Below are positions 5,066 to 39,676 of a DNA stretch of 40,033 nucleotides, piece by piece. The position numbers and the translations under genes are program-made. The stretch lies in UHGV virus genome UHGV-0235137. One strand, written 5' to 3'. Under the pieces are notes generated by a model. That model did not search any database. It worked only from the letters and a program-made list of their open reading frames with translations, and was not told where the DNA came from. Source of the stretch: a virus. The first letter of the stretch is position 1. Each line of letters opens with the position of its first letter.

Positions 5066-6667
5066 ATGGACTTAAATGCTGTTAAGCAGAAGCGAGTGGA
5101 AGATGTTAGGAAAGTCCTAGCTGGAGAGTTGGGGCTTTCTGATGAAGTAAAAGAAATTATCAAATCATTCGGTAAAGACCCCTCTAAATTCCTTCCAACT
5201 CAAATTCTGACTTTATTAAGATACACACCAGACCAAGTTAGACTTATCTTCAAATTGATGACTGATAAGAACTATGTAGCCCCTCAGCCGGGTTCTCAAG
5301 AGGTCTTTTTAAATACTAATGCTGATTTGGTTCTCTATGGTGGTGCTGCTGGTGCTGGTAAGACGGCTGCATTGTTAATGGACTCTTTAAGGTTTATTGA
5401 TGACCCTAACTATAACGCTGTCTATTTCCGTCGAAACACAACACAGTTACAAGGTGGTTTGTGGCCTGCTGCAAAGAAACTATTTGGTAAGTTTGGTGGG
5501 GTTCCTCACGAGCAGAAGATGACTATCACATTCCCTTCTGGGGCAACTATCAAGTTTACCTACCTAGAACTTGAAAAGCACGCTGAAGGTCATCAGGGTA
5601 TTGAATACTCAGCTATTTACTTTGACGAAGGTACGCACTTCTCTGCTTCACAGATTTCATACCTACAGACTCGTCTACGTTCTGGGGCTGAAGGTGATTC
5701 ATACATGAAGATTTCTATGAACCCAGACAGAGACCACTTTATTTACGATTGGGTAGAACCATTCTTAGATGAAGAAGGTTACCCAGACCCTGAAAAGTGT
5801 GGTCGTATTCGTTGGTATGTAATGAATGATGGTGTTATGGTTTCTGATTGGGAGAGGGACAAGATTCTTGAAATGTTTCCTCTTGAGATTCCTCAAACAT
5901 ATACATTCATCTCTGGTACGATTGATGATAACCCAATTCTTGACTTCTTAGAACCAAAGTATCGCGGTAAGTTGGAAAACAACACTCCTGTAAACGTTGC
6001 AAGACTTCGTTTCGGTAACTGGAAGGCTCGTGCAGAAGGTTCAAACTATTGGCAAAGACAATGGTGTGAGATTGTTGATTCACTCCCAGAAGATGTATTC
6101 GATGTCAGAGCATGGGACTTAGCAGCAACTTTACCATCTGAGATTAACCCTAATCCAGACTGGACAGCAGGTGTTAAGATGGGTAAATCTAAAAAAGACG
6201 GTTGCTATTATATCATTGATGTAGTAAGATTTAGAGATAGACCCTCTGGAGTCGAAACACAAATTAATTTGACTGCTGAAAGTGACGGTAAGCGAACTGG
6301 TATTTTTATCCCTCAAGACCCAGGCGCTGCTGGTAAATCCTACGCGACATCCCTCATCAGGAAACTTGCCGAGAAAGGCTATCGTGCAAGAGCTAAACCA
6401 ACAAATAAAGATAAAGTTACCCGCTTTGCGGGATTTTCTGCTGCTTCTGAAGCTGGACTTGTAAAAGTCTTGAGAGGTAGCTGGAATGAAGCTTACTTTC
6501 AAGAGCTTGAAGGCTTTTGTGGTGATGGCAAAACTAAAGATGACCAAGTGGATGCTACCAGTGATGCTTTCAACAGTCTTAACGAAGTTAAATTATTCAA
6601 GCCACCATCAATGGGTGCTCACACAGACTTAGTGAGAGGAAACCCATATGAGGGGCTTAGACGTTGA
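5066..6667 (+). CDS. terminase large subunit
   Basis: Walker A GGAAGAGKT, Walker B-like YFDEG, size about 530 aa, followed by portal-sized gene; start moved to the ATG after a GGAGG RBS. Confidence 0.85.
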   Translation: MDLNAVKQKRVEDVRKVLAGELGLSDEVKEIIKSFGKDPSKFLPTQILTLLRYTPDQVRLIFKLMTDKNYVAPQPGSQEVFLNTNADLVLYGGAAGAGKTAALLMDSLRFIDDPNYNAVYFRRNTTQLQGGLWPAAKKLFGKFGGVPHEQKMTITFPSGATIKFTYLELEKHAEGHQGIEYSAIYFDEGTHFSASQISYLQTRLRSGAEGDSYMKISMNPDRDHFIYDWVEPFLDEEGYPDPEKCGRIRWYVMNDGVMVSDWERDKILEMFPLEIPQTYTFISGTIDDNPILDFLEPKYRGKLENNTPVNVARLRFGNWKARAEGSNYWQRQWCEIVDSLPEDVFDVRAWDLAATLPSEINPNPDWTAGVKMGKSKKDGCYYIIDVVRFRDRPSGVETQINLTAESDGKRTGIFIPQDPGAAGKSYATSLIRKLAEKGYRARAKPTNKDKVTRFAGFSAASEAGLVKVLRGSWNEAYFQELEGFCGDGKTKDDQVDATSDAFNSLNEVKLFKPPSMGAHTDLVRGNPYEGLRR

Positions 6668-6683
6668 TAGCTAGGTGAGAAGA

Positions 6684-8150
6684 ATGGCAGAAATTACAGA
6701 AACACAAGAAAGCTTACCACCATTTAGAATGGGTGAAGTAGGTTCTTTGGGTCTGAAGGTTAAGAATGGAAGAATCTATGAAGAACCTCGTCAGGCACTA
6801 AGGTTCCCTGAAAGTATTAAAACTTTCCAATTAATGATGCGTGACCCTGCTGTAGCAGCATCTGTGAATATTATTAAGATGTTTGTCAGAAAAGTCAACT
6901 GGAGATTCGTACCTCCAAAGGGAAAAGAGCAAGACCCTAAAATGCTTGAAAGAGCAGACTTCTTTAATTCTTTAATGGATGACATGGAGCATGATTGGGC
7001 AGATTTTATTAACTCTGTAATGTCATTCTGCACTTATGGGTTCTGTGTTAACGAAAAGGTTTATAAGAAACGTCAGGGTAAAAAAGGAAAGTACCAGTCA
7101 AAATTTGATGATGGTCTAATTGGGTGGGCTAAATTACCAATCAGAAACCAGTCAACACTTGATAAGTGGTATTTTGACGAAGACTTTAGAAAAGTTACTG
7201 GTGTTAGACAGAATCTGAGAAATGTTTCACATATTGCTGGAGCAATTAATCTTGGAGAAAGACCACTAACAAGAAAACTCCCACGAGCTAAATTCATGCT
7301 GTTTAAGTATGACGATGAGTATGGTAACCCAGAAGGTCGTTCACCATTACTTAATGCTTATGTACCGTGGAAGTATAAAGTACAGATTGAAGAGTATGAA
7401 GCTGTTGGTGTTTCAAGAGACTTAGTAGGTATGCCAAAGATTGGTTTACCACCAGACTATCTAGATGAGAATGCAGAACCTGAAAAGAAAGCTTTCGTAC
7501 AATACTGCAAAACTGTTGTTAATGATATGATTGCTAATGACAGAGCAGGTTTAATCTGGCCTAGATATATCGACCCAGATACTAAAGAGGATATCTTTGA
7601 GTTCTCATTAGTTTCTAGACAGGGTGCTAAAGCATATGATACAGGTTCTATTATTGATAGATATTCCAAGCAGATTATGATGGCATTCATGTCAGATGTT
7701 CTTGCTATGGGTCAGTCAAAATATGGTTCATTCTCTCTTGCAGATTCTAAGACAAGCCTATTAGCAATGTCAGTAGATATTCTGCTAAAGCAAATTAAGA
7801 ACGTAATTAACCGTGATTTAGTTGCACAGACTTATGCTCTTAATATGTGGGATGATGAAGAACATGTACAAATCACATATGATGATATCGAAACTCCAGA
7901 CCTTGAAGCAATTGGTTCTTATATTCAGAAGACTGTTGCAGTAGGTGCTTTGGAAGTTGACAAAGAGCTATCTAACAAACTTAGAGAGCATATTGGTCTT
8001 CCTCCTGCTGATGAGTCTCAGCCAGTATCTGAAAAGCTTTCTCCAAATAGCCAAAGCCGTTCAGGAGATGGTTATAAGACCGCTGGGGAAGGTACTGCAA
8101 AGACACCTTCAGCGAAAGACCCAAGCACAGCAAATAAGGCAAATAAATAA
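6684..8150 (+). CDS. portal protein (candidate)
   Basis: about 490-aa ORF directly after terminase; assigned by position and size; ATG at 6684 preferred over GTG at 6675. Confidence 0.6.
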   Translation: MAEITETQESLPPFRMGEVGSLGLKVKNGRIYEEPRQALRFPESIKTFQLMMRDPAVAASVNIIKMFVRKVNWRFVPPKGKEQDPKMLERADFFNSLMDDMEHDWADFINSVMSFCTYGFCVNEKVYKKRQGKKGKYQSKFDDGLIGWAKLPIRNQSTLDKWYFDEDFRKVTGVRQNLRNVSHIAGAINLGERPLTRKLPRAKFMLFKYDDEYGNPEGRSPLLNAYVPWKYKVQIEEYEAVGVSRDLVGMPKIGLPPDYLDENAEPEKKAFVQYCKTVVNDMIANDRAGLIWPRYIDPDTKEDIFEFSLVSRQGAKAYDTGSIIDRYSKQIMMAFMSDVLAMGQSKYGSFSLADSKTSLLAMSVDILLKQIKNVINRDLVAQTYALNMWDDEEHVQITYDDIETPDLEAIGSYIQKTVAVGALEVDKELSNKLREHIGLPPADESQPVSEKLSPNSQSRSGDGYKTAGEGTAKTPSAKDPSTANKANK

Positions 8151-8650
8151 TGGCTGAAGTTATCTCTATTTCAAATGCTACACGAGTGCATTCGTATAGG
8201 GGTGTCCTTATCATTACTGATAAGCTATCTGTAGAGGCTGGCTCAAGGGTCAGCCTTTCAGGTTATGTTAGTGATGGTGGAATCTCTGACGTTTTCACTA
8301 TTTGCAGGTTACTTGATGCACCAATGAGTGGAAAACCGTTTATTTCAGGAAATTGTAGTGAAATTGTTAAAATTCCATTTGACAGTTCATGCCTTTTGGG
8401 TGTAAAGTTATATAACTGCGAGAATAAACGTATCAATGTTAATAGCATTGAAGCCGCTTTCATTACCCTCGATACTGCATTTCAATCTCCAATGACAGTT
8501 AATAAAGAAACAAACAGACTTGAATACATTTTTTCACAAAATGATTACAAAGTACTTGTCAAAGGTAAAGTATATGATATGATTGTAAATGTGGTAGATG
8601 AATCTGGTAACCATTCAACAGTCCTTAAACAAAAAGTAAGGTTTAATTAA
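8150..8650 (+). CDS. hypothetical head-module protein
   Basis: 166-aa ORF whose start overlaps the portal stop. Confidence 0.5.
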   Translation: MAEVISISNATRVHSYRGVLIITDKLSVEAGSRVSLSGYVSDGGISDVFTICRLLDAPMSGKPFISGNCSEIVKIPFDSSCLLGVKLYNCENKRINVNSIEAAFITLDTAFQSPMTVNKETNRLEYIFSQNDYKVLVKGKVYDMIVNVVDESGNHSTVLKQKVRFN

Positions 8651-8982
8651 TGGGAACATTAACTATTGATGGTAAGAATAAAATCCTCGCCACGCTAACC
8701 CCAACGACTATTATTTTACACAATGTAGACCCAACGGCAGACCCTACAGCAAATAAGGTTACTCAGCCAGTGGCTATTTATTTTTCTGAACCGGATAATG
8801 GCTTAATTGCCTCAGAAGACACAGTTGATATTACTGTTCCAGCTTCTGCAACGGTCTCACACTATAGCTTGTGGGATGCTAACGATAAATGCGTGGCAAC
8901 TGGTGCTCTTAGCAAACCTCAATTCTTTGCTGAAGAAGGTATCTATGTTATCTCTTCAGTCTCTGTAGATTTAAACAAATAG
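8650..8982 (+). CDS. hypothetical head-module protein
   Basis: 110-aa ORF in the same orientation, start overlaps the previous stop. Confidence 0.5.
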   Translation: MGTLTIDGKNKILATLTPTTIILHNVDPTADPTANKVTQPVAIYFSEPDNGLIASEDTVDITVPASATVSHYSLWDANDKCVATGALSKPQFFAEEGIYVISSVSVDLNK

Positions 8983-8993
8983 GGTGAGTAAAA

Positions 8994-10340
8994 ATGAGTT
9001 CGAATATCTTCAGACTTGCTGATAGATTATTCAACCAACCTTTACTAGCCACTGAATCATTAGCTCACTCAGCAGCAACTTATGTGAATAACAGATTGCT
9101 GGGTGATGTCCAAGCAGCAGTAAACTTTGATACCCCAAAAGGTGATGCAAGAAGTCTTTTAAAAGTAAAAGATGATATTGCTATTATCCCTATTATGGGT
9201 GGCTTAACCCATCGTATGACATTCATTGATGCAATGTGCACAGGTGGTTTAAGTTCTTATGAAGGTTTACGCAGAGGCTTTGACGAAGCTTTAGCAGATG
9301 AGTCAATTAAGACTATTGTTCTGCACATTGATTCTGGTGGTGGTGAAGCTTCAGGTTGCTTTGAATTAGCACGTCACATTATGGCTTCAAGAGGCCAAAA
9401 GAAAATTATTGCTTATGTAGATGAGTTCGCTTGTTCCGCTGCATATGCTCTTGCATCTTCTGCTGAAGAAATTATTGCATCACCAGATGCAGATGTTGGT
9501 TCTATCGGTGTAATCATGGTTCATCAGGAATTAACTAAGGCATTTGAAAAGAATGGCGTAACAATTAACGTCATCAAAGCTGGTGAGTTTAAAGGTATGG
9601 GTTCACCATTCCAAGCACTTTCAGAAGAAAGCAAAGAAAGACTTCAAAAGAGAATTAATGATACCTACACAACCTTTACAGGTTTTGTAGCTGAATCTCG
9701 TAATCTCTCTGAAGAAGCTGTAAAGAATACTGAGGCGAATGTTTATTCTGCTCAGGAAGCTCTTGAACTTGGTTTAATTAACTCAATCATGTCTCAAGAT
9801 GATTTCTTAAATTACTTACAAGGTTCTGAAGAGGCTCCTGTAAGTTTAAACGTTAACAATTCAGGTGAAGAAATGACTGAACAAGAAAAGCAAGAACTAG
9901 AAGCTTTGCGTCTTCAGGTTGCTCAAATGAAAGCTAAAGAACAGGAAGCTGCTTTGTCAGATTTGACTAATAAGATTTCTGCTTCTGCTGAAGCTTTTGG
10001 ATTTGATGCAAAAGAAGCTGCAATGACTATTTTAGGTGCTGGTCTTGATAACCCTCTGAGTGTTCTGTTTATGAATGCTATGGAAGGTGCTAACCAGAAA
10101 CTTAATGAAACTATCGCATCCCATGCTTCTGCAATGGAAGAAAAAGAATCAGAAATTACCAAGCTGAAAGAAACTGCTGGTGCTGTTCTTGAACATTCCA
10201 ACGCTATGGAAGAAGTGGGTAATGACGGCGAAGCTGATTTGGTTGAAGAAGAAAAAGAACCAGCTAAGAATGCTTCCGAAGACACCGCTGAACAACGCAA
10301 ACTGGCTCTCCAGAATGCTCTAAAATCTCTTATTAAATAA
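8994..10340 (+). CDS. prohead protease (S49/ClpP-like, lambda C-like) fused to a coiled-coil scaffold-like C-terminal region
   Basis: N-terminal region with glycine-rich and ...CSAAYALAS... serine motif resembling SppA/S49 peptidases; Glu/Ala/Lys-rich C-terminal half; sits between portal and capsid genes. Confidence 0.65.
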   Translation: MSSNIFRLADRLFNQPLLATESLAHSAATYVNNRLLGDVQAAVNFDTPKGDARSLLKVKDDIAIIPIMGGLTHRMTFIDAMCTGGLSSYEGLRRGFDEALADESIKTIVLHIDSGGGEASGCFELARHIMASRGQKKIIAYVDEFACSAAYALASSAEEIIASPDADVGSIGVIMVHQELTKAFEKNGVTINVIKAGEFKGMGSPFQALSEESKERLQKRINDTYTTFTGFVAESRNLSEEAVKNTEANVYSAQEALELGLINSIMSQDDFLNYLQGSEEAPVSLNVNNSGEEMTEQEKQELEALRLQVAQMKAKEQEAALSDLTNKISASAEAFGFDAKEAAMTILGAGLDNPLSVLFMNAMEGANQKLNETIASHASAMEEKESEITKLKETAGAVLEHSNAMEEVGNDGEADLVEEEKEPAKNASEDTAEQRKLALQNALKSLIK

Positions 10341-10351
10341 GGAACACAACA

Positions 10352-10729
10352 ATGGCATATCAAGGTTTTACTAAGTTAGGTAAAAGAGAACCTCTGAATG
10401 ATATCATTCTTTGGGAACAGGTTACCCCAACAGGCCACTCTCGTAAAGAGTACACTCCGGTTGCTTCAACAGAATATCGTGTAGGTGAAGTTCTGAAGGC
10501 AGACGGTACTAAAGTTACAGCAGGGCAAGAAGCTCAGGCTGATTCGGTATGTATCGTTAACTTCTATGCAGACCTGCAACTGTCTTACCACGGTCAGTTG
10601 AAAGTTGTTGGTATTTACCGCGACGCAGAACTAAAAGACCTGCTTACTCTTGAGTCAGGTGTTGATGCTGCCGCAGTCAAGACAGCTCTGGCTGCCAAAG
10701 GTATCGATTTCGTACCAACTGGCCTGTAA
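10352..10729 (+). CDS. head decoration protein (candidate)
   Basis: 125-aa ORF immediately upstream of the major capsid gene; position only. Confidence 0.4.
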   Translation: MAYQGFTKLGKREPLNDIILWEQVTPTGHSRKEYTPVASTEYRVGEVLKADGTKVTAGQEAQADSVCIVNFYADLQLSYHGQLKVVGIYRDAELKDLLTLESGVDAAAVKTALAAKGIDFVPTGL

Positions 10730-10762: not shown

Positions 10763-11869
10763 ATGTTGACTAATTCTGAAAAAAGCAGATTTTTCCTTGC
10801 TGACCTGACTGGTGAAGTCCAGTCTATCCCAAATACTTATGGGTATATTTCCAACTTAGGTCTGTTCCGTTCAGCACCAATCACCCAAACTACTTTCCTT
10901 ATGGACTTGACCGATTGGGATGTTAGCTTGCTTGATGCGGTAGACCGTGATAGCCGTAAAGCAGAGACTAGCGCACCTGAGCGTGTTCGTCAAATCAGCT
11001 TCCCAATGATGTATTTCAAAGAAGTTGAAAGCATCACTCCTGATGAAATTCAGGGTGTACGTCAGCCAGGCACTGCAAACGAACTGACTACTGAAGCTGT
11101 AGTACGTGCTAAGAAGCTGATGAAGATTCGTACCAAGTTCGACATTACTCGTGAGTTCCTGTTTATGCAAGCTCTGAAGGGTAAAGTTGTCGATGCTCGT
11201 GGTACTCTGTACGCTGACCTGTACAAGCAGTTCGACGTTGAGAAGAAGACTATTTACTTCGACCTTGACAATCCTAATGCTGACATTGACGCTGCTATTG
11301 AAGAACTGCGTATGCACATGGAAGATGAAGCTAAGACTGGCACTGTAATCAACGGTGAAGAAATTCACGTAGTTGTTGACCGCTTATTCTTCAGCAAACT
11401 GGTTAAACACCCTAAGATTCGTGATGCTTATCTTGCACAGCAGACTCCGCTGGCTTGGCAACAGATTACTGGTTCTCTGAGAACTGGTGGTACTGACGGC
11501 GTTCAGGCTCACATGAACACTTTCTACTACGGTGGTGTTAAGTTTGTCCAGTACAACGGTAAGTTCAAAGACAAGCGCGGTAATGTTCACACTCTGGTGA
11601 GCATTGACAGCGTAGCAGCAACTGTTGGTGTAGGTCACGCTTTCCCTAACGTTTCTATGCTGGGTGAAGCAAACAACATCTTCGAAGTGGCATATGGTCC
11701 ATGTCCTAAGATGGGTTATGCAAATACACTTGGTCAGGAACTGTACGTATTCGAATACGAAAAAGACCGTGACGAAGGTATTGACTTCGAAGCTCACTCT
11801 TACATGCTGCCATACTGCACACGTCCTCAGTTGTTGGTAGACGTCCGTTCTGACGCTAAACCAAGCTAA
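10763..11869 (+). CDS. major capsid protein (lambda E-like)
   Basis: 368-aa ORF after protease/scaffold and decoration candidate; C-terminal region recalled as resembling lambda gpE; strong RBS. Confidence 0.75.
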   Translation: MLTNSEKSRFFLADLTGEVQSIPNTYGYISNLGLFRSAPITQTTFLMDLTDWDVSLLDAVDRDSRKAETSAPERVRQISFPMMYFKEVESITPDEIQGVRQPGTANELTTEAVVRAKKLMKIRTKFDITREFLFMQALKGKVVDARGTLYADLYKQFDVEKKTIYFDLDNPNADIDAAIEELRMHMEDEAKTGTVINGEEIHVVVDRLFFSKLVKHPKIRDAYLAQQTPLAWQQITGSLRTGGTDGVQAHMNTFYYGGVKFVQYNGKFKDKRGNVHTLVSIDSVAATVGVGHAFPNVSMLGEANNIFEVAYGPCPKMGYANTLGQELYVFEYEKDRDEGIDFEAHSYMLPYCTRPQLLVDVRSDAKPS

Positions 11870-32229: not shown

Positions 32230-33333
32230 TTACTCATAATCCCTAATAACTAGCCCAACAGGGAACTGTAAAGAACCCTTACGAGTCATCTTCTGGAACT
32301 GAACCGTTAGAGGCTTCCCGATAAACTCTTCAGGATGCTCAGCAAGATACTGTTTCTTCTCACGAGTAGTCTTCCATGAGACATCTACAAAGACGTTAGG
32401 AAGAGTCTCTACAACGAACTTGCCATGACCACGCTTATCAGTCTTTACACCAGTCACTTTAAACTCTTCAGTGTGCATCTTCTTGTGCTTAATCAAGAAG
32501 TATGAACGGTGACAACACTCATAGAAGGAGTCTTCAGAGATTGAACGGTACATTGCACCTTCAAACTTAGCCTCAACCCACTTATCATGAGCTTCATCAA
32601 ACTCTTCCCAAGAATTTACACGACGAGACTTAACAGGAACAACTTTACAGCCGTCTCTAAAGTCATTCAATGGTGAAGTCTCAATAATATCTCTACGCTC
32701 AGGCCATGTCTTAGTACTGTCACAGATATCGTACCAGTAAAACTTGAGCAAGTGTCTGTCAGAATTGTCTTCATTTTTAATCATAGAGACAATATCTTCT
32801 AAGTCCCACCCATGAGCATAAATCTCACCATCAAATTCATCAACATCTTTGTGGAGCCTTAACATTGCCATAATGTCAGGTATTAGTTCAGTAGGGATTT
32901 TGTAAACAGTATTTTCACGAGAGTATGCTGTGAATACACTGCCAATACTTAAGTGCCTTGAAATCCTACAACGGACACCATCAAGTTTCGGTTGAGCATC
33001 AGCAGGGAACTTCAGATACTTTGCATGGCTAACCTTTGCAGCATCATGAGCAAGCTGTACACCTACCTTTTCAGTATTCTGTGCAGACTCTTTTGTGTAA
33101 GCATAACCTTTACGGTCAACTTGCTTTTTATACTTAGCAGCAACTTCAAAGAGAGCTTGCTGCTCAGCGTTACGCTCATTCTTTTTACCGATGTTTTTAG
33201 GTTCTGCTGTATACTCTTCAAACATCATCTTGCCATTTTCTTTACCGTAGGTTGTAATAACTTTGTCACCTACAGCAACACATGACCAGACGTTAAAAGA
33301 GCCGTCTTTATTTTGTTTGTATAGAATTGTCAT
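32230..33333 (-). CDS. ATP-dependent DNA ligase
   Basis: adenylation motif I KLDGVR (PKLDGVRCR); size about 367 aa as in T7-type phage ligases. Confidence 0.9.
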   Translation of the reverse strand: MTILYKQNKDGSFNVWSCVAVGDKVITTYGKENGKMMFEEYTAEPKNIGKKNERNAEQQALFEVAAKYKKQVDRKGYAYTKESAQNTEKVGVQLAHDAAKVSHAKYLKFPADAQPKLDGVRCRISRHLSIGSVFTAYSRENTVYKIPTELIPDIMAMLRLHKDVDEFDGEIYAHGWDLEDIVSMIKNEDNSDRHLLKFYWYDICDSTKTWPERRDIIETSPLNDFRDGCKVVPVKSRRVNSWEEFDEAHDKWVEAKFEGAMYRSISEDSFYECCHRSYFLIKHKKMHTEEFKVTGVKTDKRGHGKFVVETLPNVFVDVSWKTTREKKQYLAEHPEEFIGKPLTVQFQKMTRKGSLQFPVGLVIRDYE

Positions 33334-34970: not shown

Positions 34971-35483
34971 TCAACTTAGTTTTGCAAACTCTCCGTGGAG
35001 TTTCATAGCAGCTTCACAGTAAGCTTTATGGGCTTCTTCTTCTGTTATGTATGTCCCTATATGCACTGTCTTGCCATTATGGTTAACCTGTGCTTTCCAC
35101 TTACCAGATTTGCTTCTACTTGTACCTTTCAAGTTTTTTGATGTTCTAGGTTGTCCCCTATTAGACATGTTCTGTTCTTTTGTGGCCTCTCTAAGATTGT
35201 TCCAAGCATTATTCAAACCATCTCCATCTTTGTGGTCAATGTGTTTATCAGGCCACTTACCTGTCATCCAGAACCAAGCAATTCGGTGATTACCTGTTCT
35301 GTATCCTAGAATCTGTGTGTGCATATACACACCAGACCTTGTGCGCTTGATTGCTCCGGCTTTGCTTCCAATAACCACTCTACTACTATGTGGAGGTCTT
35401 CCAATCCATGTTAAGACCCCTGTTTCGGGGTCATAGTCTAACCAAGATTTTAACTGTTCATGTGTGAATCCACAATCCCGCAT
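34971..35483 (-). CDS. HNH homing endonuclease with AP2-like DNA-binding domain
   Basis: HIDHKDGDGLNNAWNNLREAT HNH motif; C-terminal GKWKAQV...HIGTY...EEAHKAY AP2-like segment; directly downstream of the polymerase gene. Confidence 0.8.
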   Translation of the reverse strand: MRDCGFTHEQLKSWLDYDPETGVLTWIGRPPHSSRVVIGSKAGAIKRTRSGVYMHTQILGYRTGNHRIAWFWMTGKWPDKHIDHKDGDGLNNAWNNLREATKEQNMSNRGQPRTSKNLKGTSRSKSGKWKAQVNHNGKTVHIGTYITEEEAHKAYCEAAMKLHGEFAKLS

Positions 35484-38182
35484 CAGTGTACCTCATACCA
35501 CGATTTACCAACCTTACCAGTACCTGTAACAAGCGTTTCTTTCTTAAGACCTAAGTTCTTAGAAGCTTGTCCATAATACCAGTCAGTAACTGCTTTCACA
35601 TCTGCCGTCATACTTTCTGGACATTCCCAACTCGTCTCATCGTGATATGCGCAGAGCAAACGAGCACCAATAGCTGGTTGACGACCATTCAACTTCATCA
35701 AACCTTCGTCAATCATACGACGACAAGCAAGGTTAATTGCCTCATTTTGAATCTGAGCCTCTGAACCCATCAAAAGATAGTTCAACAGTTTGTGTGGAGA
35801 TTTACACCACAACCAAGCTCCAGCAACCTTTACAAAACCACCTTTAGAGATTGCAGCAGTCTTACCAAACACCTCTTCAAGTGCCTTCTTAGTTGCTTTG
35901 TAGTCAGCTTCCAAGTCATCTAGCAGCTTCTTAATCTTAGGCAAACGGATAAAGTAAGTCTGCTTAGTCAGTGCACCTTCCTGAGTAGTTGCAGCTTTAA
36001 TCGTCTTAGCAAACTTCTCATCACCTGCACCGAACAGCAGTGCATAGATACCATTCTTAGCTTTCTTACGACCCTTGCTAATCTCATGGAGAAGGTTCTC
36101 ATCCTGAGTAGCTCGACAAGTCAAGATATCCTGCTCATCATTCAAGCTAAAGTAAATACTGTTCAGTGTGTGTGCATCAGTCCCTGAATAGACAACGTAA
36201 AGGTCGTTCTCAGAGTCATAGCGAAGGTACTTATCAATCTCTGGGTTGAGGTACTCATCAAAGTGTTTGCAGTAATAGCGTCCATCTTCTTGACGAATAA
36301 ACTCAATCTCTTCTTTACCTTGCGTTACCGCTTTGGTGAAGTCTTTGTCACCCATAAAGTTACAAAGAAGAACTAGCTGGGCTGAGTTCATGTCTACAGA
36401 GACAACGTTAGTACCTTCTTCACAAATCCACACTGCCCTCATTGGTTCCCCATAGACAGCAGCACCAGACGGTACGTTTACAATACCATATTGTGTCATA
36501 CGTCCAGTTGAAGTACCAAACACCATTGCACCAGCACTAAGGCGACCATCAGGACGAATCTGGTTCAACCAACCTTTTTCATCATCCTTTGAGTTCTCAA
36601 TAGTTCTGCGTCGGTGCATCAAAGTATAGTACTTAGCAATTTTCTGTCCAAGCTCACCTTCAATCGTATCATAAGATGACTCAGTAAGTTTTGGTGAAGT
36701 ACGGATTAAGCAAGGTTCAAGCAAATCTGTGTACTTCTTAACAGACCAGTTATGCTCAATGTACTGGACACCTTCATGTTCAACATAACTCAAACCACAC
36801 CGTTCAACCATCTCCTGCCATTTAGGATGCTTTGTAATCATCTTTTTGTTGTCTTTGAAGCGACAAACCTTAACAGGACGACCATCAGAGTCTTTCTTAT
36901 AGTTCCAGTCATCTGGAATCCAACCAACTGATTTCAAGTAGTCTTTAACAACTGCTACCTGAGTCATACGAGAAACTTCGAACTCAATTGGTGTATATGG
37001 TGCATCAATCAAACCTGTGTAGCGACTTGACTCAAGTTCAAAGTGGTTAACAACATGACTGTTATAGTACTTCACAGTTTTAACTGTTTTTACTGGCTTC
37101 CAGTCTTTGCATTTCTTACCAATCTTTGCGTTCAACTCATTGCAAATTGCACGAGCATCCTTCATTGCTACAAAGCCTTCCTTGTACTCTTCACCAGTTA
37201 CAGAGTTGGTTGGTGTATAGCAATTCCGCTTTTCAATGTTAAAAATCTTGGTAGTTGGTTTACCAAATGGCTTGATTTCATATGTCTGCATCTCACCATT
37301 ACGTACCTGCTGACGATACTTTGTCTTAGGGTACTTAGTAATTCTCTTCAGTCCATCTGCATGACCGAATGCTTCAACATACTCATTCCAAGCTTTTGCA
37401 AATTCTTCTCCAGTAACTTTACCTTTGGTCTTAATAGTTGGTGGAAGGTGTGGTTCAACTTCTGAAGCAAGCTCATTAGTCAACTTGTCAAGTTCCTTTA
37501 CATGGAACTCCATAAGTTCTTTATCAGCTTTCCAACCATTAATAGCTTGTTGACTCATCCAGAAAGATGTTTCTTTAGCTCGCATGTAGGTTTCATAAGT
37601 ATCTACGCCACACTTCTTCAGCTTAAGATATTCATTATCCAGTGCACGTTTAGTTTTGGCGTTAATACGGATATCTTCCACAACACGAGTGAATATTTCT
37701 GCATTCCACACACCCCAATGTTCAATCTCTGGTTTACGGACACCAACACGAGCACCCCATGCTGCCAAGCCATGAGCACCCTTATAGCCCTTTGGAGTTG
37801 GTCTATCCATCCACTGAACACGAGACTGGATAAGAGAATCCTGAAAGAAATTACTCCACGGCTTACACTTTGGATTATCAAAGTTCCACAAATCAGGTGC
37901 AATGTGATTGAAAACCCACCAGTCATATCCCAGACCATTATGGATGCAAAGTCGTTTTGCCTTTAACGCAAACTCAACACCTTCACGCAAGCCACCCTTA
38001 ATGTACTTGGTATACTTGTGACCGAGGATAGGCTCATCTGTAAAGACCCATACAGGTGGCTCTTCATCGTCAGATTTATAGTCTGCGAAAGCCATTACGT
38101 GCACTTTAGTGAACTCAAGGAGTAAACCATCAGTTTCTGTATCACCAACTAAATGTAAGTTTTTAAAATCTACGTTTTCCAT
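35483..38182 (-). CDS. DNA polymerase, family A (Pol I / T7 gp5-like) with 3'-5' exonuclease domain
   Basis: exo motif DTETDG; motif A-like SVDMNSAQL; motif B-like KKAKNGIYALLFGAG; motif C YHDE; start set at the ATG (38182) preceded by AGGGAG. Confidence 0.9.
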   Translation of the reverse strand: MENVDFKNLHLVGDTETDGLLLEFTKVHVMAFADYKSDDEEPPVWVFTDEPILGHKYTKYIKGGLREGVEFALKAKRLCIHNGLGYDWWVFNHIAPDLWNFDNPKCKPWSNFFQDSLIQSRVQWMDRPTPKGYKGAHGLAAWGARVGVRKPEIEHWGVWNAEIFTRVVEDIRINAKTKRALDNEYLKLKKCGVDTYETYMRAKETSFWMSQQAINGWKADKELMEFHVKELDKLTNELASEVEPHLPPTIKTKGKVTGEEFAKAWNEYVEAFGHADGLKRITKYPKTKYRQQVRNGEMQTYEIKPFGKPTTKIFNIEKRNCYTPTNSVTGEEYKEGFVAMKDARAICNELNAKIGKKCKDWKPVKTVKTVKYYNSHVVNHFELESSRYTGLIDAPYTPIEFEVSRMTQVAVVKDYLKSVGWIPDDWNYKKDSDGRPVKVCRFKDNKKMITKHPKWQEMVERCGLSYVEHEGVQYIEHNWSVKKYTDLLEPCLIRTSPKLTESSYDTIEGELGQKIAKYYTLMHRRRTIENSKDDEKGWLNQIRPDGRLSAGAMVFGTSTGRMTQYGIVNVPSGAAVYGEPMRAVWICEEGTNVVSVDMNSAQLVLLCNFMGDKDFTKAVTQGKEEIEFIRQEDGRYYCKHFDEYLNPEIDKYLRYDSENDLYVVYSGTDAHTLNSIYFSLNDEQDILTCRATQDENLLHEISKGRKKAKNGIYALLFGAGDEKFAKTIKAATTQEGALTKQTYFIRLPKIKKLLDDLEADYKATKKALEEVFGKTAAISKGGFVKVAGAWLWCKSPHKLLNYLLMGSEAQIQNEAINLACRRMIDEGLMKLNGRQPAIGARLLCAYHDETSWECPESMTADVKAVTDWYYGQASKNLGLKKETLVTGTGKVGKSWYEVH

Positions 38183-38242
38183 TTTTACTCCCTCTAAAAT
38201 CATTAACCTCATACATTACTGCAAAAAATTATAAAAAGCAAG

Positions 38243-38863: not shown

Positions 38864-39676
38864 ATGAACACTACTGTAGACCAAATGCTTAAAGAAAAAG
38901 GTATTGACGAAGCATTCTTAATCAATGCCGTAGAAAGCATGGCTATAATTCTTCGTGGAAACAACTACACAGAACAGTTTATGCCTGCAAGCTATAACTT
39001 GCCTAAAGACAAGTCTGATAACGGTGCTTTTGCAGAGCAGGTAAATATGATGCTGTGTGACAAAACACTTGCTTTAGCATCTATTGTTGTAGGTGTTGAT
39101 GCTCTTGCAGAGTTCATTTTTTATGAGATGCAGAAAAATGACTATATTGCCATGACCTCTGAAGAAAAAGACTCGCTACTGCTCTTAGGTTATGATGAGC
39201 TAGTTAACCTATTAATTTCGTCAACGAGTGCTGTTATGGCTGCTCTTGAGAAGCGCATGGAAGAGAAGCTGTCACGATATGAAAAACTTGATTGGGGTGT
39301 AGAAGAGTTAAACCCACGAATCAAAGAGATTATCCAGCAAACTAAAGACTCTTTAGCAGAAGCTGTGAAAGATGATTCTGTAGCTGATGTAGAACCACTA
39401 CAGGTGAAAGTTGCATTGATGATTCCAGCTATCTCTATGATGATGAATATCGTTGCACTAATCCAACTTTCACAGATGATGGGTACAAGCATTGAGTTCA
39501 TTGAGAGCATGACTGGTGGTGTGAGTATGCAAGCAATCAATGATGTTTTGGTAAGCATCGGTGCTTCAATCATTGAAGAGAAGCTTCGTATTAACTTCGG
39601 CGATGATTTTGTGAAGCAAATCTCGGCTATGGCTGAAAAAGAGCACTCACAAATTACTAGTGACCAACTGCACTAA
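38864..39676 (+). CDS. hypothetical protein
   Basis: 270-aa ORF immediately downstream. Confidence 0.55.
   Translation: MNTTVDQMLKEKGIDEAFLINAVESMAIILRGNNYTEQFMPASYNLPKDKSDNGAFAEQVNMMLCDKTLALASIVVGVDALAEFIFYEMQKNDYIAMTSEEKDSLLLLGYDELVNLLISSTSAVMAALEKRMEEKLSRYEKLDWGVEELNPRIKEIIQQTKDSLAEAVKDDSVADVEPLQVKVALMIPAISMMMNIVALIQLSQMMGTSIEFIESMTGGVSMQAINDVLVSIGASIIEEKLRINFGDDFVKQISAMAEKEHSQITSDQLH

Follow-up and report, generated by a model that had tools for sequence, protein, structure and literature searches.

The open reading frame (ORF) at positions 8994 to 10340 on the + strand of the virus genome UHGV-0235137 raises the question of whether one gene supplies both the protease and the scaffold of a phage head, and whether these two parts are made only as a fused protein or also from a second, internal start. 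The initial annotation of this stretch of DNA (40,033 nucleotides, hereafter the window) had described an S49/ClpP-type prohead protease and a Glu/Ala/Lys-rich, coiled-coil-like scaffold fused in one ORF. The single ORF stands. However, a simple fusion is not its best description: the ATG at 9873 is conserved, preceded by a Shine-Dalgarno (SD)-like motif, located at the domain boundary and aligned to Met309 of lambda gpC, which makes a nested gene pair the better one. In phage lambda, the S49 protease gene C holds the scaffold gene Nu3 in the same frame and is followed by D and E, in the order B-C/Nu3-D-E. The locus studied here is probably a nested protease-scaffold gene of this C/Nu3 type in a Felixounavirus.

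The ORF starts at the ATG at 8994, ends at the TAA at 10338-10340 and encodes a protein of 448 amino acids (aa) and 48.3 kDa, which corresponds to Felix O1 gp56 and is the analogue of lambda gpC. The full-length protein has its own SD-like motif, GGTGAG (8983-8988, + strand), placed 5 nt before the ATG and with a duplex energy of -6.9 kcal/mol with the 3' end of the 16S rRNA; GGTG-type sites also precede the start codons of the relatives' genes. The N-terminal part is, beyond reasonable doubt, an S49 peptidase, as had been proposed for it. Pfam Peptidase_S49 (PF01343) covers aa 134-275 (E = 4.8e-39, 134.2 bits versus a cut-off of 24.9), PHROG 53 ("head maturation protease") matches the whole length (E = 8.6e-118), and tblastn to the gene C of lambda and lambdoid phages gave E-values from 1e-21 to 3e-24. 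SppA was also found by sequence, with E = 3e-20 for the Bacillus subtilis protein (3rst/4kwb) and further matches to Escherichia coli SppA structures.

These searches, together with AlphaFold2 and Foldseek, delimit a protease core with the S49/SppA fold at aa 57-277 (9162-9824, + strand). The AlphaFold2 model, which was built with 74 homologs, has a mean predicted local distance difference test (pLDDT) score of 82.8, with values mostly between 87 and 98 in the core and of about 69 at aa 71-90. When the modelled core was compared by Foldseek, the top 20 matches were all SppA, followed by ClpP, and the superposition with SppA 3rst/4kwb (E ~1e-18, best 9e-19) covered about 220 residues with a target template modelling (TM) score of 0.82-0.85 and a root-mean-square deviation of 2.0-2.6 Å. 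The predicted nucleophile is Ser148 (codon at 9435-9437, + strand), in the motif FACSAAY. This residue is invariant in the 74 homologs and aligns with the serine of the AASGGY motif of SppA and with Ser166 of lambda gpC, which Medina et al. (2010) reportedly identified as the lambda nucleophile. Lys200 (codon at 9591-9593, + strand) is likewise invariant in the 74 homologs and aligns with lambda gpC Lys218; its catalytic role, as the general base of a Ser-Lys dyad, is predicted from the mechanism of the S49 family. The predicted Ser148/Lys200 protease would act on head proteins.

The core is preceded by an N-terminal region (aa 1-56, 8994-9161, + strand) which is modelled as two short helices followed by a disordered stretch at aa 42-54 (pLDDT 42-70) and which contains the motif FNQPLL. 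Its residues P16, L17 and L18 are invariant in an alignment of 25 close homologs. A wider motif, (L/A)-x-x-x-F-N-x-P-L-(L/M), located outside the S49 Pfam domain at aa 1-22 (8994-9060), is common to this protein and to aa 10-25 of lambda gpC, where it reads FNEPLM.

After the protease core there is an acidic and variable linker (aa 278-293, 9825-9872, + strand), predicted to be disordered (pLDDT below 50 at aa 279-291) and being the least conserved and length-variable part of the 25-homolog alignment. The C-terminal module that follows is of a very different composition, since Glu, Ala and Lys make up 41.9% of residues 294-448 versus 23.8% of residues 1-277, and Cys, Trp and Tyr are absent from it. 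AlphaFold2 places helices at aa 296-335, 339-349, 354-401 and 432-447, with a disordered acidic stretch at aa 407-429. Thus, the Glu/Ala/Lys-rich character of the C-terminal half was confirmed, and long helices are predicted in it. The last helix (AEQRKLALQNALKSLI, aa 432-447, 10287-10334, + strand) is amphipathic and basic, is modelled with a pLDDT of about 83, and its R..AL..AL pattern is conserved in the 25-homolog alignment. By analogy with other scaffolds, it may be a candidate capsid-protein-binding element.

Starting from Met294, the module would be the product of a predicted nested in-frame ORF (9873-10340, + strand) encoding a putative scaffold of 155 aa, 16.7 kDa and an isoelectric point (pI) of 4.5, analogous to Nu3. 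The size, the pI, the abundance of charged residues and the four predicted helices over most of aa 296-447 are traits of the scaffold class, whose members are elongated, strongly charged and largely alpha-helical and have about 100-300 aa. When every ORF of 90 aa or more in the window was scanned for composition, the most scaffold-like 100-aa stretch fell in the C-terminal half of this ORF, followed by the tape-measure protein.

The prediction of a nested product is based on the conserved ATG, the alignment with lambda and the SD-like motif. The motif AGGTGA (9863-9868, + strand) is separated from the ATG at 9873 by a 4-nt spacer and has a duplex energy of -6.8 kcal/mol, about the same as the site of the gene itself. 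In the alignment of 25 homologs (45-91% identity), Met294 does not vary, although it lies inside the most variable and gap-rich part of the protein, and it is present in at least 90% of the 74 homologs, which go down to 23% identity. It also lies at the domain boundary, as the helical module starts at aa 296. In the pairwise alignment, Met294 (SGEEMTEQE) falls on Met309 of lambda gpC (SGGRMTKET), which is preceded by the best internal SD of lambda C, caGGAGGgcgaATG, with -10.8 kcal/mol. Hence, the check for an internal start that would yield a separate scaffold, suggested along with the initial annotation, was positive at the sequence level, and its conservation suggests that Met294 may be used as a start. 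Regarding RNA structure, which has been reported near the internal start in lambda and HSV-1, the fold of positions 9810-9910 around the ATG was no better than that of shuffled sequences (z = 0.18).

The nucleotides upstream of this ATG were compared in a set of 11 Ounavirinae-type loci, consisting of the gene of the window and 10 relatives that are 45-70% identical to it. An AGG core was located at -14 to -6 of the conserved ATG in all 11 loci, versus about 10% of the codon positions elsewhere in the same genes. The residues encoded at the motif vary (SGEE, TEVS, TGTE, QVTE, QETE, QDNE, SEELE) and so does the codon phase (tca-ggt versus cag-gta). The maintenance of AGG despite these different residues and codon phases points to selection on the nucleotides and not on the peptide.

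The comparison was extended to 29 representative fused homologs from viral metagenomes, with less than 80% mutual identity, taking -5.5 kcal/mol or stronger as the criterion for an SD. A linker methionine with an SD was found in 86% of them, a proportion not attained in any of 20,000 simulations; a best-of-n null in which the same number of methionines was taken from elsewhere gave 34-42%. According to these comparative data, the internal start signal is a common feature of fused S49 protease genes.

As a separate observation, many distant fused homologs (L068, L075, L054, L060, L070, L079, L049, L050 and L056) carry two SD-preceded in-frame methionines in the linker, about 15-30 codons apart. 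In L068, Met286 follows aaAGGAGGagcaATG (-11.6 kcal/mol), and the value for Met303 is -5.7 kcal/mol. These paired methionines suggest that alternative or multiple nested products are possible.

Other relatives encode the two parts separately. In nine related loci (L053, L058, L059, L061, L062, L064, L066, L067 and L082) the protease has 274-282 aa and ends at the equivalent of aa 275-277. A separate Glu/Ala/Lys-rich ORF with its own SD comes directly next in eight of the nine, beginning where the linker would be; the complete ones have 154-187 aa, and another two run off the end of the locus. These split loci indicate that the two modules are separable units and that lineages shift from one layout, nested or split, to the other. 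In the L062 group, the separate ORFs also have, about 36 codons in, an internal methionine in the context "...EQEKEETM..." that resembles the nested start. Some apparent split genes were discarded. The Felixounavirus proteins P0013 and P0014 (274-275 aa) are N-terminally truncated fragments starting at Met175 and not protease-only versions. A database search with the C-terminal part alone retrieved only two proteins, of 152 and 85 aa (L092 and L093), which come from a contig with 1.5x coverage and a heavily fragmented assembly and are likely sequencing artefacts.

Among the characterised systems, lambda C/Nu3 is the natural comparison. The protease domains are homologous, with a tblastn E-value of 3e-24 and an identity of about 33% over aa 46-281, both proteins carry the FNxPL motif, their sizes are similar (448 aa here versus 439), and a linker methionine with an SD is found at the aligned position (Met294/Met309). 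The order of portal, protease/scaffold, beta-tulip decoration protein and E-family capsid protein is also common to both. On the other hand, the C-terminal modules have no detectable similarity, the one described here being more acidic and predicted to be strongly helical. Two whisker genes are placed here between the protease gene and the portal gene, which is of the Mu type. The phages themselves are different, since this one is a virulent T=9 myovirus of about 87 kb and lambda is a temperate T=7 siphovirus. Moreover, nested translation has been documented for lambda, whereas here it is predicted from the sequence.

The start of Nu3 itself is disputed in the lambda records, being placed at 5132 in RefSeq NC_001416 (gpC Met239, inside the protease fold) and at 5023 in the lambda imm21 record. 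The 131 positions of PHROG 8399 ("head scaffolding protein") align over their full extent with lambda residues 309-439, which indicates that the 131-aa form of Nu3 starts at Met309. Both this match and the strongest internal SD point to Met309, at coordinate 5342, as the Nu3 start.

An arrangement with similar modules is found in P2 gpO, a scaffold-protease fusion reported to be made only as the full-length protein, which then cleaves itself. As in the ORF studied here, one reading frame carries an N-terminal protease and a C-terminal scaffold and there is no separate scaffold gene; the difference is the conserved internal start signal found here. Moreover, no similarity to gpO appeared in any search, the top matches being all to S49, SppA and lambda C. 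A preprint from 2026 describes a "nested" protease-scaffold scheme in lambda, HSV-1 and the archaeal virus HFTV1. For the gp17/gp17.5 pair of HFTV1, the preprint gives a 7.8-fold excess of C-terminal over N-terminal peptides, and its authors detected neither an SD nor any other known ribosome-binding motif before the internal start. Both this pair and the herpesvirus UL26/UL26.5 follow the logic proposed for the present locus, with a globular protease at the N-terminus, a C-terminal scaffold rich in helices and a second start in the same frame through which more scaffold than protease is made. However, they belong to other protease families and hosts, and a bacterial-type SD is conserved here, whereas none was found in HFTV1. 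Finally, SppA (MEROPS S49; 3rst, 4kwb, 3bf0) has the same fold and Ser-Lys catalytic type, but it is a membrane-anchored cellular enzyme without a scaffold-like tail, whereas the phage protein lacks an anchor and has additional regions at both termini.

The phage of the window belongs to Felixounavirus (subfamily Ounavirinae). A 4-kb slice around the gene is 98% identical to many Escherichia, Salmonella and Shigella phages; it matched 263 phage records, 253 of them over at least 80% of the slice, and in Salmonella phage SP116 the same gene carries the label "head maturation protease". All the neighbouring structural genes are on the + strand. Upstream, the large terminase (5051-6667) is followed by a Mu-type portal (6675-8150, Pfam PF06074). 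Two small genes come next, encoding proteins of 166 aa (8150-8650) and 110 aa (8650-8982) located between the portal and the protease. They are the counterparts of Felix O1 gp54 and gp55, both found in virions according to the 2010 genome paper of Felix O1, and of the whisker proteins seen in the cryo-electron microscopy (cryo-EM) structures of Sf14 (gp30 and gp31) and Bas63 (gp5). The 110-aa protein has a weak, sub-threshold Pfam match to Gp80, podophage GP4 fiber I protein (E = 1.4e-4). As they correspond to virion whisker proteins, these two genes were ruled out as scaffolds.

Downstream, the ORF at 10352-10729 encodes a protein of 125 aa that occupies the position of lambda gene D and is equivalent to Dec (gp7) of Bas63 and to gp33 of Sf14. 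It matches PHROG 4146 ("tail protease") and, weakly, a "head decoration" family. The Bas63 cryo-EM paper identifies Dec as a beta-tulip decoration protein and names the common "tail protease" label as an error. Considering this identification and the gene D position, the "tail protease" label of PHROG 4146 and RefSeq on this protein is a propagated mis-annotation. The next gene (10763-11869) encodes the major capsid protein, of 368 aa and of the lambda gpE family (Pfam Phage_cap_E, E = 4e-78), without a delta domain. The Felix O1 capsid protein ran at 40 kDa versus a predicted 41.5 kDa, and the authors of the 2010 genome paper judged from this that it is probably uncleaved. The order of portal, whisker genes, protease-scaffold gene, decoration protein and E-type capsid protein is kept in 8 relatives.

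With portal, whisker, decoration and capsid genes as flanks, no separate scaffold gene stands before the decoration and capsid genes, as the initial annotation had stated, and PHROG scans of the other helical or unassigned ORFs of the window returned no scaffold family. The virion data are consistent with a protein that is removed during maturation. The virion proteome in the 2010 genome paper includes Felix O1 gp53, 54, 55, 57 and 58 but lacks gp56, and the table of Sf14 virion proteins does not list gp32. Removal of a scaffold by the protease had already been proposed by the Felix O1 genome authors, who did not name the scaffold, and none is mentioned in the cryo-EM papers of 2025 on Bas63 and Sf14.

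Other features of the window are located away from this gene. The + strand structural block ends about 10 kb before a 270-aa ORF (38864-39676, + strand) which matches PHROG 4251 ("minor tail protein"). According to the Bas63 paper, the gene of the Hoc-like hexamer decoration protein is placed at more than 10 kb from the structural module and usually carries a mistaken tail-protein label, and this ORF could be that gene. An HNH/endonuclease VII-type ORF (2684-3097, + strand; PHROG 2255, E = 1.8e-41) was found about 2 kb upstream of the large terminase. In addition, the sign of the GC skew flips twice, near 28 kb and near 38 kb; between these points, the longer ORFs 32230-33333 and 35483-38212 are on the - strand, and the flips may mark a - strand transcribed block after the tail genes.

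Under the nested reading, the gene would work as follows. Late in infection, ribosomes starting at 8994 would produce the 48-kDa protein, in which a flexible acidic linker joins the protease to a helical assembly module, and ribosomes starting at 9873 with the AGGTGA of this site, probably more often, would produce the 16.7-kDa, 155-aa module alone. The free module would scaffold the E-type capsid protein into a procapsid around the portal, with the T=9 geometry known from the Bas63 structure. Since the full-length protein carries the same module, it would be co-incorporated through it, and a few copies of the protease would be built into each procapsid. After assembly, the Ser148/Lys200 protease would degrade the scaffold and itself, emptying the shell, and DNA packaging, expansion and the binding of the decoration protein to the expanded shell would then take place. 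Removal of the scaffold and of the protease itself agrees with virion lists in which the protein is missing and with a capsid protein that appears to be uncleaved.

Several observations weigh against the nested reading. The internal AGGTGA is only moderate in strength (-6.8 kcal/mol), and other in-frame methionines of the gene have upstream energies of the same range (Met75, -6.9; Met202, -7.5; Met175, -5.5 kcal/mol). Since these three sites are similar or slightly weaker by chance, the SD energy in a single gene is not discriminating and the information comes from the comparative analysis alone. The core of several relatives is only AGGT, with -3.9 kcal/mol. The Gly and Glu codons of the linker are purine-rich, and this composition could give some SD-like signal; nevertheless, SD-like sites precede only 18% of the non-Met codons in the same linker stretch, so that composition alone does not explain the signal. 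The conserved methionine could also serve another role, for instance as part of a cleavage site, and literature searches for ribosome profiling (Ribo-seq), N-terminal proteomics or prohead composition data found none for Felixounavirus.

As for the scaffold itself, the coiled-coil-like nature first ascribed to the C-terminus was not borne out, as the Fourier power at 3.5 residues did not differ significantly from that of shuffled sequences (P = 0.69, 0.07, 0.21 and 0.37 in a crude test of heptad periodicity); the evidence supports "long alpha-helices" and not "coiled coil". A PHROG scan of aa 294-448 alone matched no family, whereas lambda Nu3 matches PHROG 8399, 8940 and 53. A profile of 25 C-terminal sequences aligned by hhalign gave a probability of 0.1% with lambda Nu3 and of less than 1% with two separate scaffold-like proteins of split relatives, and BLASTP of the module returned only an off-register low-complexity match (E = 0.007). 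The module is therefore an analogue of Nu3 by position and design and not a demonstrable homolog. Because it has no sequence homology to any characterised scaffold, we infer its function from its position, composition and predicted structure, its absence from virions, the lack of an alternative candidate and the analogy with known systems, which make a scaffold role the most likely one.

The alternative that has to be weighed most seriously is a pure fusion of the P2 gpO type, which corresponds to the initial annotation taken literally and in which only the 48-kDa protein would be made, each scaffold subunit would carry a protease and autoproteolysis would separate and remove the parts. P2 gpO shows that such a single protein is workable, and the gene is indeed one uninterrupted ORF in which, among the records listed of the 263 related genomes, the nested gene is unannotated. 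The moderate internal SD and the similar values of some other internal methionines by chance also agree with it. However, this explanation does not account for the near-invariance of Met294 in an otherwise variable linker, for the AGG kept at a fixed upstream distance in different codon phases or for the enrichment of SD-preceded linker methionines in the 29 homologs. Moreover, a nested start at the aligned position is in use in lambda gpC, the characterised protein to which the protease domain is most closely related. We thus consider a pure fusion rather unlikely, although clearly ahead of the other alternatives.

It has also been considered that the C-terminal region could be a mere targeting or tethering domain for the protease, with the scaffold encoded elsewhere or not needed. 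Prohead proteases of other families, such as those of HK97 and T4, are encapsidated through their C-terminal tails, and the module has no sequence homology to characterised scaffolds. Nevertheless, a helical module of 155 aa is far larger than a targeting peptide, no other scaffold-like ORF was found in the window and the capsid protein has no delta domain. Furthermore, the existence of relatives that encode the module as a separate gene would make no sense for a mere tether, and the conserved internal start argues for a free product, so that this explanation appears improbable. The most distant alternative is that the product has no role in the head and is a signal-peptide peptidase of the cellular SppA type, or an NfeD-like protease, with another purpose. 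Some records do say "signal peptide peptidase" and there is a sub-threshold match to Pfam NfeD1b_N (36 bits versus a cut-off of 40). The model, however, contains no hydrophobic transmembrane helix, the position between the portal and capsid genes is kept in all relatives examined, and both the full-length PHROG 53 match and the direct resemblance to lambda C indicate a head protease; we regard this possibility as very remote.

The nested design itself is known from lambda C/Nu3, and conceptually nothing here goes beyond that model. What is new is its assignment to the Felix O1 group, in which the nested ORF is unannotated among the records listed. Concerning S49 protease-scaffold genes as a whole, we lean, by a small degree, towards the idea that the internal start is ancestral and nearly universal in diverse tailed phages, including Ounavirinae, and mostly unannotated, that SD strength sets the scaffold:protease ratio, and that switches between nested and split layouts have been repeated. 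The combination of a conserved methionine and an SD in a variable linker offers a simple rule by which nested scaffold genes can be recognised within genes for S49 proteases.

If the nested reading is true, the annotation would be corrected in several hundred genomes, where the gene is now labelled "head maturation protease", "signal peptide peptidase" or "hypothetical protein". Moreover, the missing scaffolding protein would be identified for the Felix O1 group, whose phages are widely used for Salmonella typing, biocontrol and therapy.

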